DNA of 64,000 bases. It comes from an uncultured Candidatus Saccharibacteria bacterium. GTDB taxonomy: Bacteria; Patescibacteriota; Saccharimonadia; Saccharimonadales; JAGQNJ01. The notes under the pieces were generated by a model that made no database searches, had not been told where the DNA came from, and saw only the letters and a program-made list of their open reading frames with translations. The stretch covers positions 4,132 through 68,131 of the forward strand of contig CAZEED010000005.1 of assembly GCA_964510945.1 (NCBI GenBank), in the 5' to 3' direction. How positions within the stretch are numbered: position 1 is the stretch's first letter; the number at the start of each line of letters is the position of its first letter. Positions 4,181 through 46,140 of the stretch are shown here, in pieces. The position numbers were made by a program, and so were the translations under genes.

Positions 4181-5602
4181 ATGGAGAGAAGACACCTGAT
4201 TACAAATTTAGTTGCTGGGACTGCAGCTGCGACTGCTGCATTTCATATGGCTTATGATCCACCCCAAATCCACTGGGGACCAGAACGTGAAACACATACT
4301 GCCGAATACGACGAGACAAGTTACGGCTTTCCTTTAAGGATTGCACCAGACGGGATAGAGACAGACCTATTTGCATCATCTGAAGCGTCCCCAATACCAT
4401 ATGAGGCAATAACCAATATGGAGGCTAATCCAACTACTGGCGGCTTTGATCGATACGACATGCAATCACTTGCAGATACACTTCGATACTTAAGCAGAAG
4501 TAATTATAGCCAATATCGTATAGTAATTACGCCCCACATCTCCGCTGAAGACAATAGCGGTAGTGCTGACGGCGGTATATCAACGGAAAGTTTAAGTAAT
4601 CTCGCTATAGCCGAGCTAAAAGGTCAAGAAATGGCTGACTTTATCCGAACCACTGCCGGCGAACTTGATTTAGATCTCCCACTCATCCAAGTACAAGAGT
4701 CAGAAGAACAATTAATCTCTGATCAATCCACTATGTGGGACGGCGAAACAATTATTAAAGACCAACTTGACTATCTGGTAGGTGAATTTGGTTATGACAA
4801 CCCTAATGACATGATCCGTAGATGGCGCCAGGCCCCGGCCGATGCACCACCTGAAGTCCGCACTACGCTTCGCTCAATTTTTAACGGTCAATCATTTGTT
4901 GATGTAAAAATTCTGACCCCAGAAGAAGAAGTTTGCCAAATCACCATTACTCATCACAAAGATGTAGTTGAGAGAGAGCGGGATAATGAATATCCTCTAC
5001 CAGTCGCGATTCCTGGATATTTGCCAGTCGTTGGTGCAGCCGCGTTACTCAGTGCAGGATTGCGAAAAAGAACTTCAGATAACGGTACACCACGTGAACC
5101 GAGACCACCTAGAGAGAGTCGTACAGTACCGTATAGTGGAGTATCCGGACCTGGATTTGGTGGCTCTAGTAGATTCGGCAGACGAAGGCGAAGCCCATAT
5201 CGTAACCGATATTCAGGCAGAGCCCACAACAGAAGTGTCGATTATCGTCGTCACAACCAAGATAACTCCAGAAGGCTAAGAAAAATAGGTGCATGGGTAG
5301 CAGGTACGGCATTAGTGCTTGGACTTGGATATCTAGGGGCCGAAAAATGGAATGATACTACACTAACCAGCGATGGTACTTGCGTAGACATCCATAAACA
5401 GCCAAACACATGGGGTGTATCAATACACCCACATATTGGTGATCAAGAATGCTCCGGTACAACCGCAGCACCCGACTACACCCCACCTCGTCAAAACTCT
5501 GATCCTTGTAGATACCTACCACAAGAAACAGTTGATGGTGGGACTATAGTACGAAGATTTGAAGACGGCGAATTAAAAAGCACTCAAGTCGTAACCCCAT
5601 AA
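4181..5602 (+). CDS. Hypothetical multi-TM protein with an Arg-rich disordered loop and a Cys-containing C-terminal domain
   Basis: The ORF track begins at 4130, but ATG 4181 (MERRHLITNL) avoids an implausible hydrophobic leader. Three predicted TM segments. Loop sequence RKRTSDNGTPREPRPPRESR..GRRRRSPYRNRYSGRAHNRS. No recognisable domain. Confidence 0.55.
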   Translation: MERRHLITNLVAGTAAATAAFHMAYDPPQIHWGPERETHTAEYDETSYGFPLRIAPDGIETDLFASSEASPIPYEAITNMEANPTTGGFDRYDMQSLADTLRYLSRSNYSQYRIVITPHISAEDNSGSADGGISTESLSNLAIAELKGQEMADFIRTTAGELDLDLPLIQVQESEEQLISDQSTMWDGETIIKDQLDYLVGEFGYDNPNDMIRRWRQAPADAPPEVRTTLRSIFNGQSFVDVKILTPEEEVCQITITHHKDVVERERDNEYPLPVAIPGYLPVVGAAALLSAGLRKRTSDNGTPREPRPPRESRTVPYSGVSGPGFGGSSRFGRRRRSPYRNRYSGRAHNRSVDYRRHNQDNSRRLRKIGAWVAGTALVLGLGYLGAEKWNDTTLTSDGTCVDIHKQPNTWGVSIHPHIGDQECSGTTAAPDYTPPRQNSDPCRYLPQETVDGGTIVRRFEDGELKSTQVVTP

Positions 5603-5634
5603 GAACCTAAAAGATCATTTTTGCCCGATTATTT

Positions 5635-6756
5635 TCAGACGTAGCCTCCGCTACCGTGATTTACTTTTCTGTAAATTCGATCATATAGTCGATTAGCATC
5701 GCCTTTGGTTAAAGTTTTTTCTAAATGCCTGAGGGTAATCCTAACTAATACATTTTTCTGTTTAGGTAAAATACCTAATCTATCTTGAATCTTTTTTGGT
5801 AAATCCGCGTAAGCTGTTTCGTCGAGCACTTCTACGCTTTCCAGCACATCAACTTCATCGCCAAGAGCAATGCGAATATACTCATTTATGTCTTCTTCTA
5901 CATAGTTCTCTGGAACACTATATGACATATCTCGCCTTATAGCTGGTTGATTAGAAACCTCTCGATACGGCTTTAAATCTTTCATTTGACGGGCGATCTT
6001 TGGATTTGTCGATCTCAAATAACGTATATCTGGAATTGATTTTAGCGTCATTACTAACCTATCTAATCCAATACCTGATGCCCAGCCAGAATAAACTTTC
6101 GGATCCAGCCCAGCATTTGCTAGTATTTTTGGGTTAATCAGGCCACATTCCATGATCTCAATATCGCGGTCTTCTTTGACAGCGTTGACTTCCATCCCTT
6201 CGGTCGTATAGGGATGTGGCATGTCAACAATCCGCAGTTTCCAGCCAGGCGCAGCCACCTTTGCTATCCCTTCCACTACGCCTTTCAAATCCTGCCTCAC
6301 AATTTGTTTATTTTTGCACACGCGCCAAATACCTAGCATATGAATAGCAGACAAGTGTTTTTTGTCAGTCACATCGCGTCGATAGACAACTGCAGGCGTT
6401 AAAATTACCACGTCATCCCAATCATCTCGTTTCGCTAAATCCCGTAATATTCCTGGGATATGGGCCGTATCGTGCGTACGTAAAATGTGTGTCTCGTCGA
6501 CATAATGCGTGTAGGTAGACGAACGGCTGATATTATCCTTATCTATCAGCAAATTGTCGTAATTGTCCTCGACGCTAACTATTGGGCTACCCCGATATAC
6601 CATAATTTGACTGCTGGGGTGACTTGCTCGAATATAGTCCTCAATTTTTTGGTACAACAACTTTACCGCATGCGGTTCTTTCGAATCTGTTAAATCCGGT
6701 ACGGCTAGATACCTTTCTAGTACCTCTTTGTCGATTGGTTCTATATACATTTTCAT
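5635..6756 (-). CDS. Single-chain PheS-like class II aminoacyl-tRNA-synthetase homolog fused to a C-terminal FDX-ACB (anticodon-binding) domain
   Basis: - PheS-like core: RTHDTAHIP, motif-2-like VVYRRDVTDKKHLSAIHMLGIW, HPYTTEGMEV..IEIMECGLINPKILANAGLD, motif 3 SGWASGIGLDRLVMTLKSIPDIRYLRS.
- C-terminus matches the FDX-ACB pattern: DMSYSV..LESVEVLD..VLVRITLRHLEKTLTKGDANRLYDRI.
- Start taken at MKMYIEP (6756), 1 nt after the upstream stop. Confidence 0.75.
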   Translation of the reverse strand: MKMYIEPIDKEVLERYLAVPDLTDSKEPHAVKLLYQKIEDYIRASHPSSQIMVYRGSPIVSVEDNYDNLLIDKDNISRSSTYTHYVDETHILRTHDTAHIPGILRDLAKRDDWDDVVILTPAVVYRRDVTDKKHLSAIHMLGIWRVCKNKQIVRQDLKGVVEGIAKVAAPGWKLRIVDMPHPYTTEGMEVNAVKEDRDIEIMECGLINPKILANAGLDPKVYSGWASGIGLDRLVMTLKSIPDIRYLRSTNPKIARQMKDLKPYREVSNQPAIRRDMSYSVPENYVEEDINEYIRIALGDEVDVLESVEVLDETAYADLPKKIQDRLGILPKQKNVLVRITLRHLEKTLTKGDANRLYDRIYRKVNHGSGGYV

Positions 6757-6757
6757 T

Positions 6758-7000
6758 TTATTTCCACCAATCCCAAGGTCGGCCCACCATCTCATCTAGC
6801 GACCGTCCCTTGGCCCACGCATCATTAGCAGGTTCTGTGGCTATATCTATAGGCTCGTCGGGTGGGTTAACCAAAACTTCTGGCCCCTCCAGCATGGCTT
6901 TACCTAAATTTTGCGCCATCAGCGGCTGTACACATCTTAAGCCTCGCCCAGATTCGCCAATACACATATTTCTAACTCGTTCTCCGTTAATTTCACTCAT
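6758..7000 (-). CDS. Small hypothetical protein (80 aa) with C-terminal GRPWDWWK tail
   Basis: AAGGAG sits 6 nt upstream of the ATG at 7000. The stop TAA (6760-6758) is 1 nt from the ATG of the PheS-like gene, so the two are translationally coupled. No recognisable domain. Confidence 0.55.
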   Translation of the reverse strand: MSEINGERVRNMCIGESGRGLRCVQPLMAQNLGKAMLEGPEVLVNPPDEPIDIATEPANDAWAKGRSLDEMVGRPWDWWK

Positions 7001-7033
7001 AATTTTCTCCTTAGTCTAAATATTTTCAAATAC

Positions 7034-7079
7034 AAAAAAACCGCCCAGGAGTGATTCCCCTGGGCGGTTTTTGTTTTTT
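7034..7079 (-). terminator. Rho-independent terminator, structurally bidirectional
   Basis: Stem ccgcccagg (7041-7049) pairs with cctgggcgg (7059-7067) around a 9-nt loop. An A-run (7034-7040) and a T-run (7068-7079) flank it. It lies downstream of the 169-aa gene on the minus strand. Confidence 0.75.
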
Positions 7080-7120
7080 AGCAATACTTAAACCAGCCGA
7101 GAATCACTCCTGGGCTGCAT
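7041..7120 (-). promoter_or_regulatory. Attenuator-like element: terminator, competing 15-nt antiterminator and 10-codon uORF
   Basis: 7101-7115 (gaatcactcctgggc) is the perfect reverse complement of 7043-7057 (gcccaggagtgattc). That stretch covers most of one terminator arm (7043-7049) and most of the loop (7050-7057). The uORF ATG 7120 to TAA 7088 (MQPRSDSRLV) overlaps the upstream competing segment. Confidence 0.5.
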
Positions 7121-7253
7121 AAATGAAATTCCTGATTGGTTAGCGTGCTTTATCATAGCTACACCAAAATATCACAACACAATAAGTTTGTCAAACAATA
7201 TTTATGCTTACGTGTCAATTATTCTAGTACTAGCCAACCGTGTTATTACCTTA

Positions 7254-7763
7254 TTAGTATCGACGCACAGCCGCTTCTAGAGACTGTTCATAGAGTTCCC
7301 AGGCTCTGTCAAAGTCAAATCCCACTTCGATGGCATAATCGTCTCCTGCCACCCGCAAATAATGATTTGCGTCTGTTTCTGCAAGAATCCCCTGAGTGTC
7401 AAAGTATGCATCAAACAATGACCTAATTGTGACTTCATGATCTTGGCCAGCAACGCTACGCTCATATATACCCGTAGCTATGCCGATTTGATTGGCGATT
7501 GCGTCTTTTTGTTTGTCAGGCAACTCTTGGCCTACCTCAGGACTATCAACTAACCCGATTAATCTTGTTAACGTTCTCTCTACCGCCGACTGTTCTTCAA
7601 ACGGCTTCTCAATAATAATTCGGGCTCTCTTCGCAACGTCTATTCGCGCCTTGCCGTTTCCTGTCAATAATTCTGCAGGTGTAATGTGCCCGACATATAT
7701 GGCGCTGTCCGTACCTAATGCTTCTTTGATTTCTTCAACGCTTAGTCTTATTGATTCACTCAT
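7254..7763 (-). CDS. Hypothetical protein (169 aa)
   Basis: Intact ORF with coding-like composition, second gene after the riboswitch-like leader. No recognisable domain. Confidence 0.6.
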   Translation of the reverse strand: MSESIRLSVEEIKEALGTDSAIYVGHITPAELLTGNGKARIDVAKRARIIIEKPFEEQSAVERTLTRLIGLVDSPEVGQELPDKQKDAIANQIGIATGIYERSVAGQDHEVTIRSLFDAYFDTQGILAETDANHYLRVAGDDYAIEVGFDFDRAWELYEQSLEAAVRRY

Positions 7764-7787
7764 GTTTTAATCTCCTAATAAAAATTT

Positions 7788-8030
7788 TTAGTAATTTGAT
7801 AGATTGCGACGCCGATACTCGTCGCGAAGCGCAACCACGAAAGCTCCACGAGTACTAACCCAGCCTGGGTTACCGCGATCTTTTTCTCGTGTCTGGATTA
7901 ACTCCTCATCAGTCAAACACTGAAATCTCTCTGTAAACCGCTCGTATTTTTGCGCTAGAGTTTCTTGTACTTCTGAGTCCAATGGTGTCTCTATATGTTC
8001 CGGTGTTATCGGATATTCTTCTTGACTCAT
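7788..8030 (-). CDS. Hypothetical small acidic protein (80 aa)
   Basis: AAGGAG lies 8 nt upstream of ATG 8030. First gene after the SAM-I-like leader. No recognisable domain. Confidence 0.55.
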   Translation of the reverse strand: MSQEEYPITPEHIETPLDSEVQETLAQKYERFTERFQCLTDEELIQTREKDRGNPGWVSTRGAFVVALRDEYRRRNLSNY

Positions 8031-8062
8031 TTTTATGCTCCTTAGCTAAATTCATTTATACT

Positions 8063-8209
8063 AAAAACCAGCAGAAAATGCTGGCTATCAAGTAATTTTG
8101 TGCATCATATCTGTCCCCTTTCATAGGGCGAGAATTGGCACCGTGGCTATTAAAGCTCGGTTGCCGGCGGTATCATTGGGCTCGATCCCTACTCCGCACT
8201 CGCAATATT
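8063..8209 (-). promoter_or_regulatory. SAM-I (S-box)-like riboswitch with intrinsic terminator
   Basis: The minus-strand RNA reads AAUAUU-GCGAG-UGCGGAGUAGGGAUCGAGCCCAAUGAUACCGCC-GGCAACC-(P3 insert)-GGUGCCAAUUCU-CGCCCUAUGAAAGGGG-ACAGAUAU. This matches the conserved S-box core blocks GGAG.GGGA, GCCC.AUGA, GGCAACC, GGUGCCAAUUC and AGAU.
It is followed by the hairpin AGCCAGCA-UUUUC-UGCUGGUU (8068-8084), a U5 tract, then the RBS. Confidence 0.6.
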
Positions 8210-8244
8210 AGTTGTTAAGTAACCACATTATACCAAATAATTTA

Positions 8245-9291
8245 CTATTTGTTGGCACGCCTTGTTAGCGCAATTAAAGGTTTGCTCGTCCACTCAATTG
8301 CTTTTCTTCGTTTATCCAGCTGGGAGCCATATGTACCGTTAACAGGATCAGTAAGTTTTATACTGTAGCTATCACTCGTTCTAGGTTCTCTGCCACCGAT
8401 GAACTGATTTCCAAGAGCCTGGAGGGCGATATTGGCTTCTGCTGCCTTTCCCCTTAATGCAGCCTCCAAATTTTCACTATGAAATTCAAAGTCATCGATT
8501 ATTGCTTTAGATGAACGCAATGCATCTAACTCATCTCGCGCAATATTTAGAAGCTCTTCGTCCAATATCGAATCTAATGCTGGTAGATCTGCATACACAT
8601 CCTCGCCCCGAACAATTGATTGAACAATATCCATATACAAGTTATATACACTTTCGCCTGAAAATTCCGACCTAATCCACGGTACTATGTCAGAGCCAGC
8701 TACAATTACTTGTTCATAATGCAGATCAGCTCTTTTGTCGTAACCTGGTTCACCAACTTTAAGAGTTTGAGAGTTAAATGGTATTAATCCTCCGGTTTGA
8801 TCTGATAAATATTGAGATCTGTAATGTTGAGTTTCAACAGGACCTTCTAGGAAACCATGAATATTTGTATATACGTTGTTAACAGCGATACCTGCACTCT
8901 TTCGATTACGAGTGCTTTCAAACGGAACAACCAATCCCACAGGTTCTGGGATATCAAGAATCGTACCAATATAACCAGCTAGGTATACAAACTTAGCATC
9001 GTGCTCATAGCTCTCGTGTGCAACATCCAGCAAAGCGACAGGCTCGCCTTGTCTACCATCTAAATAGTCATGGATTTGTTCAACGCCTGCTAGCATGCTC
9101 ATATCAAGTCCTCCGTCATCTTCGATGCCGTGACTTTTCGCGACTGCTGTCTGCAAATCATCACCAAAGGCAACCCTGTCAAAAGCAAACGCAGAAGCAA
9201 CACTACCTTCTCTGTCTTTGTAACCTTCAGGCAATTGCTCTAAATCAAAAAATATTTTCTCTCTTTGTGCTACGACTGCTTCTATTCGCAT
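8245..9291 (-). CDS. Hypothetical protein (348 aa)
   Basis: Long intact ORF with AGGGG upstream of the ATG. No recognisable domain. Confidence 0.65.
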   Translation of the reverse strand: MRIEAVVAQREKIFFDLEQLPEGYKDREGSVASAFAFDRVAFGDDLQTAVAKSHGIEDDGGLDMSMLAGVEQIHDYLDGRQGEPVALLDVAHESYEHDAKFVYLAGYIGTILDIPEPVGLVVPFESTRNRKSAGIAVNNVYTNIHGFLEGPVETQHYRSQYLSDQTGGLIPFNSQTLKVGEPGYDKRADLHYEQVIVAGSDIVPWIRSEFSGESVYNLYMDIVQSIVRGEDVYADLPALDSILDEELLNIARDELDALRSSKAIIDDFEFHSENLEAALRGKAAEANIALQALGNQFIGGREPRTSDSYSIKLTDPVNGTYGSQLDKRRKAIEWTSKPLIALTRRANK

Positions 9292-9401
9292 GACTACCCC
9301 TATTGATATTTATAACTATATTGAGATAATCACGCCTATGCAAGCATATCCAGTATCAAAATTTATGATTATATAAAGAGTTAGTACTTAATTTATTATG
9401 T

Positions 9402-9983
9402 TTAGCGAGAATCTGTTGGCATCAAAACAAGATAATTCTCATCATTTACCGAACAGACAGTCTGACCAAGTTCTTCTGCAGGATCTATTTGATCCTCAGA
9501 AATGCCAAGTAACGATTCGCCGTTATTGACTACCGTTTCACATGCTGGCACCTCGTCAGTTTGTTCTGGCGAATCATGTATTGCTACAAAAGTAAGTAAA
9601 CCTACTAGCGCGGCTGCACCGATACCAAAAGCTACGGTTTTTATCCTACGAGCTATGCGTTCGACTCTTGTTGCGCGTCGCAAACCTCTCGCACTGTTTG
9701 CAATCAATAGATCATCAAAATCTATAGGACGAGAATATACTGCGTCATCCCAACGATCTCCGTGAAAAGTTTTCGATCCATCAGAGTAGGTTTTGGTTAC
9801 TTTTCTCTTATAAGGATACGCATCCATTGTGCGGGGACAATAGTTGGTTGTGTTTTTAATTTTTGTTATTTTTGATGGCCAAAAGTAAAATCCTCGAAAT
9901 ATGCTCCCAGATACTGAATCTGGCAACTTTACTTCGTCATCTCTAACTTTTAGTTTTTGTTCTAATGTTTTTCTTAAAAACAT
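9402..9983 (-). CDS. Hypothetical single-pass membrane protein (193 aa)
   Basis: One TM segment (VAFGIGAAALVGLLTFVAI). A strong AAGGAGG lies upstream of the ATG. Confidence 0.6.
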   Translation of the reverse strand: MFLRKTLEQKLKVRDDEVKLPDSVSGSIFRGFYFWPSKITKIKNTTNYCPRTMDAYPYKRKVTKTYSDGSKTFHGDRWDDAVYSRPIDFDDLLIANSARGLRRATRVERIARRIKTVAFGIGAAALVGLLTFVAIHDSPEQTDEVPACETVVNNGESLLGISEDQIDPAEELGQTVCSVNDENYLVLMPTDSR

Positions 9984-45752: not shown

Positions 45753-46140
45753 TGGTGGAGCTGCGGAGAATTGCACTCCGGTCCGCTGGATTATCTTTGT
45801 TAGTCTTCTACAGGCTTAGTCTATTTAAATTTATCTTAGAAGAGTTATATATAAAAAGACAAAACAACAACTCCTCGCATATCTTATGGTTTCTTTGTAA
45901 AACTACAGATAAAAAGTTTTACGCAACCAGATGATATGACACGCTAGCAATGCTATCTGACGTCACTTTGCGCGTGGCTTTAGTTAAACTAAAGCTGGTG
46001 CTAGCTTAGGCATTTGGAAATTTCCAAAAGCTGCAACTAGCTGTTTTTTAACATTTGCAGTTAAAATTGTTGTCTATACGCTGACAAGCGACCTGCTGAT
46101 CTAACTGATAAAGTCCTACGTCGAGCATAATTTCAGCCCC
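45753..46140 (-). ncRNA. ssrA: tmRNA (SsrA)
   Basis: - 5' end GGGGCUGAAAUUAUGCUCGACG.
- 3' end CGGAG-UGCAAUU-CUCCG-CAGCUCC-ACCA.
- Acceptor stem carries a G3:U pair.
- Candidate tag ORF resumes at GCA 46058. Its stop UAA (45986-45984) sits in the loop of hairpin GCUUUAG-UUUAA-CUAAAGC. Confidence 0.93.

Follow-up and report, generated by a model that had tools for sequence, protein, structure and literature searches.

A predicted ribosome-mediated transcription attenuator ahead of the small-protein/SrmL operon of a Candidatus Saccharibacteria bacterium

We analysed a 64,000-nucleotide stretch (the window) of contig CAZEED010000005.1 from an uncultured Candidatus Saccharibacteria bacterium, in which an intergenic element precedes a gene for an 80-residue protein and a gene for SrmL, a paralogue of PheRS. 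All genes around the element lie on the minus strand (Table 1). An earlier sequence-only reading had placed a terminator, a competing helix and a short upstream open reading frame (ORF) in front of the small-protein and ligase genes, and that placement was borne out. The parts expected of an attenuator were found: a short ORF at the 5' end, an intrinsic terminator before the gene, and a mutually exclusive antiterminator with one strand inside the ORF. From the sequence and from modelled folds, we consider it probable that the element attenuates transcription of the small-protein/SrmL operon in a ribosome-mediated way.

Table 1. Features of the locus by position in the window, and leader classes of other SrmL loci
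Feature	Position	Strand	Description
SAM-I riboswitch	8104..8211	minus	RF00162, 49.3 bits; the only riboswitch in the window, a separate element
Terminator of the SAM-I riboswitch	8086..8066	minus	Terminator scan
Conserved 80-residue ORF after the SAM-I riboswitch	8030..7788	minus	MSQEEYPITPEHIETP...GNPGWVSTRGAFVVALRDEY...
169-residue ORF	7763..7254	minus	Between the SAM-I-controlled 80-residue ORF and the element
Promoter	7166..7194	minus	-35 TTGACA (7194..7189), 17-nt spacer with TG, -10 TATTTT (7171..7166)
Leader ORF, 22 codons and stop	7088..7156	minus	MIKHANQSGISFMQPRSDSRLV, stop; ATG 7156..7154 to TAA 7088
Weak "protector" (1:2) hairpin, candidate	7104..7126	minus	UCAUUU (7126..7121) with GAGUGA (7109..7104)
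UUU codon 12, proposed control codon	7121..7123	minus	The leader's only Phe codon; invariant in 5/5 W-class sequences, as is the preceding UCA
Internal AUG, start of the ORF in the sequence-only reading	7118..7120	minus	ACA (Thr) in L083
Antiterminator 5' strand (region 2)	7090..7115	minus	GCCCAGGAGUGAUUCUC (7115..7099) and GGC-U-GGUUU (7098..7090)
Antiterminator 3' strand	7043..7070	minus	AAACC-GCC (7070..7063) and GGGGAAUCACUCCUGGGC (7060..7043; pairs from 7059)
Intrinsic terminator	7034..7067	minus	CCGCCCAGGGG / AAUCA / CUCCUGGGCGG and U7; terminator scan and repeat search
80-residue protein, predicted first regulated gene	6758..7000	minus	Shine-Dalgarno sequence AAGGAG 7012..7007; stop abuts the SrmL start (TAAAATG)
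SrmL	5635..6756	minus	373 residues from ATG 6756; NF051887 and Pfam
Class A leader			...FFFFGFFAA, stop; stop codon in the loop of a covarying hairpin
Class B leader			MKAIS..NFFMTSSLGGLAGFTK, stop
Class C leader			MKTCS.NLFF.FILNP.RG, stop
Class D leader			...FFF..F[IM].AA.PR.., stop

The terminator and its competitor share one conspicuous repeat. Direct reading and a repeat search both show GCCCAGGAGTGATTC (7115..7101, minus strand) to match the reverse complement of GAATCACTCCTGGGC (7057..7043) exactly, 15 nt at 100% as the sequence-only reading had it, with arms at 7043-7057 and 7101-7115 and a spacer of 43 nt. No other perfect inverted repeat in the 64-kb window reaches 15 nt with a spacer of 3-80 nt, and none of 40 block shuffles contained one. 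The terminator proposed earlier is present, but its stem is 11 bp long (one G.U included) rather than 9 bp, pairing 7067..7057 with 7051..7041 and leading into a U7 tract at 7040..7034. An A5 run precedes the stem and adds an A5/U5 extension, and a scan with consensus terminator models puts the stem start at 7072 and its end at 7036, followed by a T run. The terminator is symmetric, with an A-run and a T-run on both flanks (7024-7084), and would also stop plus-strand transcription; the genes on both sides of it are on the minus strand.

The alternative helix is longer than the 15-nt repeat. It has 17 contiguous pairs (7115..7099 with 7059..7043), U7100.G7058 and C7099-G7059 being the two pairs beyond the repeat, and it continues as GGC-U-GGUUU with AAACC-GCC (7070..7063), giving 17 + 8 bp, about 25 bp in total. 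Because this continuation takes in the terminator 5' arm, the competitor would sequester the whole terminator: its 3' strand comprises the 5' arm, loop and 3' arm, and its 5' strand sits within leader codons 14-22, the stop codon contributing its first base. If the A of ATG 7156 is nt 1, UUU occupies nt 34-36, the antiterminator strand nt 42-67, the stop codon nt 67-69, the terminator nt 90-116 and U7 nt 117-123. The fold of 7165..7025 reaches -51.8 kcal/mol (z = -5.85 against shuffles).

We compared the window with four close relatives whose SrmL is 84-88% identical to its own, which together form the W class of five distinct sequences (the window, L002, L001 (= L082), L080 (= L081) and L083). 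The promoter is the best match within 5000-9500 (10/12, TG present), and the leader ATG lies 9 nt past its -10 box, with room for a 5' untranslated region of about 2-3 nt. All four relatives keep TTGACA, the 17-nt spacer with TG, the -10 box, an ATG 9 nt on and an open frame to the same stop; across the class TTGACA, TG and the T/A/T of the -10 box are invariant and the spacer is variable. The leader has 22 codons, or 21 in L083 through one in-frame 3-nt deletion, and the peptides of the relatives read MIMRSKQSAISFMQPRSDSRLV (L002), MIIQIRQLSNSFMQPRSDSRLV (L001), MKKQTIILVNSFMQPRSDSRLA (L080) and MKRYINSTVSFTQPRSDSRLA (L083). No conserved Shine-Dalgarno sequence was found ahead of ATG 7156 in the five sequences. 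Because of this, of the very short predicted 5' untranslated region, and of the preserved ATG and frame, the conserved ORF appears to be a 22-codon leader of the leaderless type. Its transcription start is the one predicted by the promoter geometry, and the ORF is presumably translated.

Conservation follows the switch. The N-terminal half of the leader peptide varies freely yet in frame, the DNA is near-invariant from UCA UUU on, and the rest of the intergenic region diverges. The invariant segment reads UCA UUU A[UC][GA] CAG CCY AGG AGU GAU UCU CGG CUG G, and a 45-nt core that includes the antiterminator 5' strand is identical in the window, L001 and L002. In the five-sequence alignment, 100% of the cells of the 17-bp antiterminator are paired, compared with 43-54% when the partner strand is slid by 1-3 columns. 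Every substitution in this helix preserves pairing: one pair has changed on both sides, from C-G to U-A (window 7112/7046), and four changes on one side only yield G.U or A-U. In L083 a C to U change in the 3' arm (column 151) gives a G.U in the antiterminator, and the terminator compensates by G to A at column 139, turning the 139:151 pair from G-C to A-U. On sequence grounds, this is the pattern to be expected of a strand that serves two partners. The L002 terminator has a wobble and a bulge.

The peptide changes, M13T and V22A (with GGUUU to GGCUU), fall where the RNA permits them, so the constraint would be mainly on the RNA, plus the UCA-UUU codons. The proposed switch between terminator and antiterminator thus stood up to comparison, its pairing being kept in all five sequences, and the outcome named beforehand as contrary to it, loss of the inverted repeat and the upstream ORF in related genomes, did not appear. 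We rejected a further idea, that GAA in the terminator loop (GGGGAAUCAC) mimics the tRNA-Phe anticodon, as L083 has GAGGAUCGC. An nhmmer search of all loci with the window core matched only L001 and L002, and leader classes are mutually unalignable.

A ribosome holds mRNA single-stranded to about P+11. When UUU occupies the A site, the P site begins at nt 31, and P+11 falls at nt 42 (first P base = 0) or nt 41 (first P base = +1). Because a footprint of this size ends at nt 41-42, a ribosome waiting at UUU would still leave essentially all of the antiterminator strand free, and at no later codon would it do so. We folded the RNAs to minimum free energy (MFE) with the ribosome footprint masked. 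With UUU in the A site and the edge at P+11, the antiterminator was the MFE structure in all five sequences; with the ribosome at the stop codon, it was the terminator in all five. In stepwise folding with the ribosome at UUU, GGC-U-GGUUU captures AAACC-GCC once the terminator 5' arm emerges, and the helix next zips across the loop and 3' arm before the terminator can close.

Free RNA behaves differently within the class. The other four sequences adopt the antiterminator by default, and the window's RNA is nearly bistable, with a state at -44.7 kcal/mol that combines the terminator with a weak UCAUUU:GAGUGA helix. This 6-bp helix (2 G.U) occurs only in the window's free-RNA MFE structure, although both of its strands are invariant, and models make it a possible 1:2 protector hairpin. 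The earlier expectation that a 15-bp helix simply outcompetes a 9-bp terminator was therefore too simple, given the 11-bp stem and the nearly isoenergetic free states of the window. Its companion claim, that ribosome occupancy could decide the outcome, holds in that the ribosome's position would select the fold, but it is not simply the case that occupancy gives termination.

We propose, from these models, that a stall before the helix leads to read-through and a ribosome on or past the helix to termination. The sigma-70-type promoter would produce an mRNA in which 2-3 nt precede the AUG of the 22-codon leader, whose codons 14-22 carry the 5' strand of an antiterminator able to pair with the entire terminator. 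A ribosome held at or before UUU codon 12 would leave the strand from 7115 on free to capture the terminator 5' arm; the helix would then zip up, and RNA polymerase would read into the 80-residue gene and SrmL. A ribosome on codons 13-22 or on the stop codon (7090..7088) would cover that strand, allowing the 11-bp terminator to form and transcription to stop at U7.

We gathered 87 SrmL loci by a protein-guided metagenome scan and contig look-ups, 60 of them with distinct upstream regions of at least 300 nt; the contig of one (L087) is cut within the terminator. In 50 of the 60, a short ORF begins 6-9 nt past a -10 box, and a hairpin with a U-run stands between it and SrmL or the small protein plus SrmL. 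The other ten comprise three in which the RNA is kept and the ORF damaged, two contig ends, and five with another gene abutting or the upstream region replaced. Of 48 distinct leaders, 30 have their ATG 6-7 nt from the -10 box; in the window's class the distance is 9 nt. There are five mutually unalignable leader classes, A, B, C, D and W (the window's), of 19-43 codons, and across them the position of the ATG, the frame and the stop are kept through insertions and deletions.

Phe codons stand in runs of 2-4 in classes A-D. Of the residues in these leaders 11-16% are Phe, whereas a background set of 2826 short ORFs taken from the same DNA has 4.5%. Forty of 48 distinct leader peptides have FF or a longer run; among background ORFs the share with FF is 8.7%. 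Only 19 ORFs in the background set have at least five Phe in nine residues, and 17 of them are these leaders. The sequence-only reading had missed these Phe codons upstream of the antiterminator in relatives, as well as the identity of the regulated gene as a PheRS paralogue. Because a Phe-codon run, a leaderless mini-ORF, a terminator and a PheRS paralogue occur together in the relatives, they carry the signature of classical attenuation. In most lineages, whether SrmL is transcribed seems to depend on the translation of Phe codons.

Of the other classes, B is nearest to the window's, with SrmL 79-82% identical, and it has the centre N-[F/S]-F-[M/T] in common with W. In class B, region 2 within the ORF (GGGGGU or GGAGGC), the terminator 5' arm (GCCCCC or GCCUCC) and the 3' arm show three-way covariation at one position (GGGGG/CCCCC/GGGGG versus GGAGG/CCUCC/GGAGG). 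Constraint folds of class C give a clean antiterminator/terminator switch between a ribosome at the Phe codons and one at the stop codon. In the MFE constraint folds of classes B and D the terminator persists whatever the ribosome state, and thermodynamic folding alone shows no switch; in class B it is covariation instead that reveals the alternative pairing. In alignment, the window's UUU codon 12 falls on the FF of the class B leaders (N-F-F-M versus x-S-F-M). From this homology, and from the invariance and position of UUU, we infer that Phe is the signal in the window's class as well, with induction presumably occurring when Phe-tRNA is scarce.

We also considered whether the leader ORF encodes a functional or precursor peptide for the ligase. 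This is unlikely: the peptides of the five classes share only their Phe runs, and their C-terminal residues covary with RNA hairpins (GCUGCC-UAG-CAGC, GCCGCU-UAA-GCGGC, GCCCUC-UAG-GGC). The leader peptides matched no Pfam or NCBIfam model.

Several points weigh against the proposed attenuator. The W class has a single Phe codon, and Phe at 4.6% of its residues is at background, without enrichment; theory expects a one-codon sensor to be insensitive (PMC1183508). Covariation is statistically weak with five sequences, as 109 of 500 shuffles reach the observed score. The constraint folds are thermodynamic only, and they depend on the assumed footprint: with the edge at P+14, the antiterminator is the MFE structure in three of five sequences, the window and L080 still preferring the terminator. 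With the ribosome at the stop codon, nine distal pairs can form transiently. The terminator scan found no terminator between the SAM-riboswitch operon (169-residue ORF, stop at 7254) and 7067, so transcripts of that operon must enter the attenuator, and these would carry the leader AUG internally, without a Shine-Dalgarno sequence. Finally, SrmL has an invariant HPY(T) in the alignment where mitochondrial PheRS has FPF(T), a motif whose two Phe contact the substrate ring in PheRS. Because HPY replaces FPF, hinting at an altered pocket, the amino-acid substrate of SrmL may not be Phe.

The lone Phe codon raises the question of whether the W leader gave up Phe-run sensing altogether. Its invariant segment might then be an arrest module acting through the nascent peptide or through rare codons (AGG, CGG), or a general sensor of translation capacity wired with the SAM riboswitch, and SrmL would respond to something other than tRNA-Phe charging. 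We judge this unlikely.

A second alternative takes over the sensor of the sequence-only reading, a 10-codon upstream ORF led by a Shine-Dalgarno sequence, in which any ribosome gives termination and none gives read-through; this would be a general sensor of translation status, with no specific amino acid involved. The ORF exists in the window, from AUG 7120 to UAA 7088 with AGGA 9 nt upstream; four of the five free RNAs are antiterminators by default, a ribosome over codons 14-22 yields the terminator, and the leader of this class lacks Phe enrichment. Against it, neither start nor ribosome-binding site is conserved: AUG 7120 is ACA in L083, and AGGA (7133..7130) is absent from all four relatives (L001, L002, L080 and L083). 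The frame of AUG 7120 is the tail of the longer ORF from ATG 7156, that in-frame extension to an ATG 9 nt past the -10 box is kept in all five sequences, and 48 leader ORFs of the family have leaderless geometry. AUG 7120 is thus probably just Met codon 13, and the 10-codon ORF appears to be the end of the conserved leader. What survives of the earlier claim is a short ORF over the antiterminator strand; ORF and switch are both kept in relatives. The version with the internal start strikes us as quite improbable.

A third possibility is that the switch is not read by a ribosome, a metabolite, a protein (SrmL or the small protein) or a tRNA stabilising one fold, with the ORF incidental. The core is indeed conserved as nucleotides and not as peptide, M to T and V to A being tolerated, and the 5' half of class A ORFs forms a conserved RNA structure that shows covariation. 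However, at the gathering threshold Rfam contains no family for the element, in the window or at 20 related loci, and curated aptamer models include no known metabolite riboswitch class that matches it. At E <= 10, the region 6950-7300 has only sub-threshold, terminator-driven Rfam matches. None is a T-box (RF00230), and the pre-helix leader is only 41 nt long, both of which agree with the earlier statement that the element is not one. Those 41 nt are variable apart from UCAUUU and leave no room for a conserved aptamer; the ATG position, frame and stop are preserved through insertions and deletions in all five classes; the Phe-codon runs would have no role; and GAA in the loop is not conserved in L083. 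We give a ribosome-independent switch little chance.

It is least probable of all, and indeed very improbable, that the element merely ends transcription of the SAM-riboswitch operon upstream, or terminates a small RNA gene, its complement having no regulatory role downstream: no other terminator lies between the 169-residue gene and 7067, the terminator is bidirectional in form, and promoter, about 125 nt and terminator would give a transcript of small-RNA size, but leader and terminator travel with SrmL and not with the upstream genes, which differ among loci (MFS, RND pump, SMODS, PGK, peptidase S8, EamA, tRNA genes), L080 and L083 lack the SAM-riboswitch operon, and the complement is maintained by compensatory change.

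Ribosome-mediated attenuation at this locus would be a case of a well-established mechanism, classical attenuation by a leader peptide, in its leaderless form. Classical attenuators precede aminoacyl-tRNA synthetase genes elsewhere, such as trpS and leuS in Streptomyces and pheST in gamma-proteobacteria (PMC1262725). Like the E. coli pheS-pheT attenuator (pheM), the element has a PheRS-family gene after a short ORF, a terminator and an exclusive antiterminator, and relatives of the window's locus have Phe-codon runs in the leader. Unlike pheST and trpS/leuS, it occurs in the Saccharibacteria, within the Candidate Phyla Radiation (CPR), its ORF is leaderless, and there is no sequence or Rfam relation. 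It further differs from pheST in that the window's class has one Phe codon and not a run, and in that the gene is a monomeric, mitochondrial-type paralogue with an altered substrate motif, not the housekeeping PheST.

The element resembles the four-region E. coli trp attenuator (trpL) in having its control codon just before region 2, in the pairing of region 2 with the terminator, in the covering of region 2 by a ribosome at the stop codon, and in a possible weak 1:2 protector. Unlike trp, region 2 pairs with the entire terminator (about 25 bp) and not only with region 3, the 1:2 helix is a marginal one whose conservation does not extend past 6 bp, and untranslated RNA defaults to read-through in most relatives and not to super-attenuation. 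Leaderless leader-peptide mRNAs occur in Actinobacteria, for example C. glutamicum ilvBNC (PMC11857589). Here too the leader mRNA would start at or next to the AUG, as predicted from promoter geometry, whereas lineage, amino acid and target gene differ. Among Rfam models, Phe_leader (RF01859), His_leader (RF00514) and the trpB motif (RF04312) have a similar generic layout of hairpin and terminator, but score below their gathering thresholds (16.6 versus 55, 32.9 versus 49 and 35.3 versus 59 bits, respectively).

What appears to be new is the lineage, the "mystery" PheRS paralogue as target, the five interchangeable implementations, and a one-codon version that engulfs the whole terminator. We found no earlier description of this attenuator in Rfam, NCBIfam, Pfam or the literature, and our literature search returned nothing on the regulation of SrmL or on leader-peptide attenuation or leaderless leaders in Saccharibacteria or Patescibacteria. 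Saccharibacteria are ultrasmall episymbionts with few recognisable regulators, and an attenuator read by the ribosome would extend the mechanism to the CPR. If the reading is right, this family would be the first documented leader-peptide attenuation system in that radiation. It would also offer a first physiological handle on SrmL, whose expression would be tied to tRNA-Phe or translation status, making hypotheses about the protein testable, for example a backup or specialised Phe-tRNA-related activity. The five leader classes would represent one regulatory logic re-implemented with unrelated helices, the window's class being the extreme case, in which control falls to one codon and the antiterminator takes up the terminator in full.

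SrmL matches NCBIfam NF051887, "PheS-related mystery ligase", with E = 1e-123 and 412.9 bits against a cutoff of 300, over profile positions 2-348 of 349. Its Pfam domains are tRNA-synt_2d and FDX-ACB, and its best solved relatives are monomeric mitochondrial PheRS structures (5mgh, 3cmq; E about 1e-27). The listed ORF of 386 residues (from 6795) is probably 13 codons too long at its start, as homologues begin with MKMYI (ATG 6756). TRNA-related genes recur near SrmL: a 241-residue AlaX-like tRNA-synt_2c protein lies downstream in L072, L078 and L086, and further neighbours include a YbaK-type tRNA_edit protein (L083), a 2'-5' RNA ligase (L076) and SAM synthetase (L074). Because of this recurrence, the neighbourhood suggests that SrmL acts on tRNA or aminoacyl-tRNA.

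The 80-residue protein ahead of SrmL has no Pfam or NCBIfam match. Homologous small ORFs, fast-evolving and 60-113 residues long, are present at some SrmL loci and not at all of them, with a stop that overlaps or abuts the SrmL start. They include those of L001, L002, L077, L078 and L083, several of which have an N-terminal (R)NMWI(G/S)E(T/S)GR and a Trp-rich C terminus. Farther upstream, the SAM-I riboswitch and its 80-residue ORF also lie directly upstream of the leader in L001 and L002. The window additionally contains a tmRNA gene at 45753-46140 on the minus strand (RF00023, 96.6 bits).

Class A (L009-L064, e.g., L010:2822-3003) is the largest of the leader classes. The structured 5' half of its ORF has an outer helix CAACAC/GUGUUG and inner hairpins that covary. 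The stop-codon hairpin, UGCNGC-NUAR-GCNGCA, shows U-A to C-G covariation (9:8), CUUUGGU within the Phe run has its complement, ACCAAAG, about 35 nt further on, and a CUCC...GGAG hairpin contains the SrmL Shine-Dalgarno sequence. Class A may combine transcriptional and translational control, or may hold an additional sensor. L052/L066 have a T8 run where L049 has AACTTTTTT, in the region about 190-60 nt upstream of SrmL; the leaderless frame there reads ...MENFFLDHLFWRTLRARIKRP to its stop, and the conserved tail ...FFGSFILADAPRTY with its stop is in another frame. This reflects either a homopolymer sequencing error or frameshift-prone decoding on a U run, as discussed for pheL (PMC3082878). 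Three class-A-like loci have damaged ORFs, and each retains the RNA elements: in L022 the stop codon is gone (loop UGAU) and the frame continues toward the SrmL start, L019 lacks an ATG where the leaderless start would lie, and L067 has an early in-frame stop.

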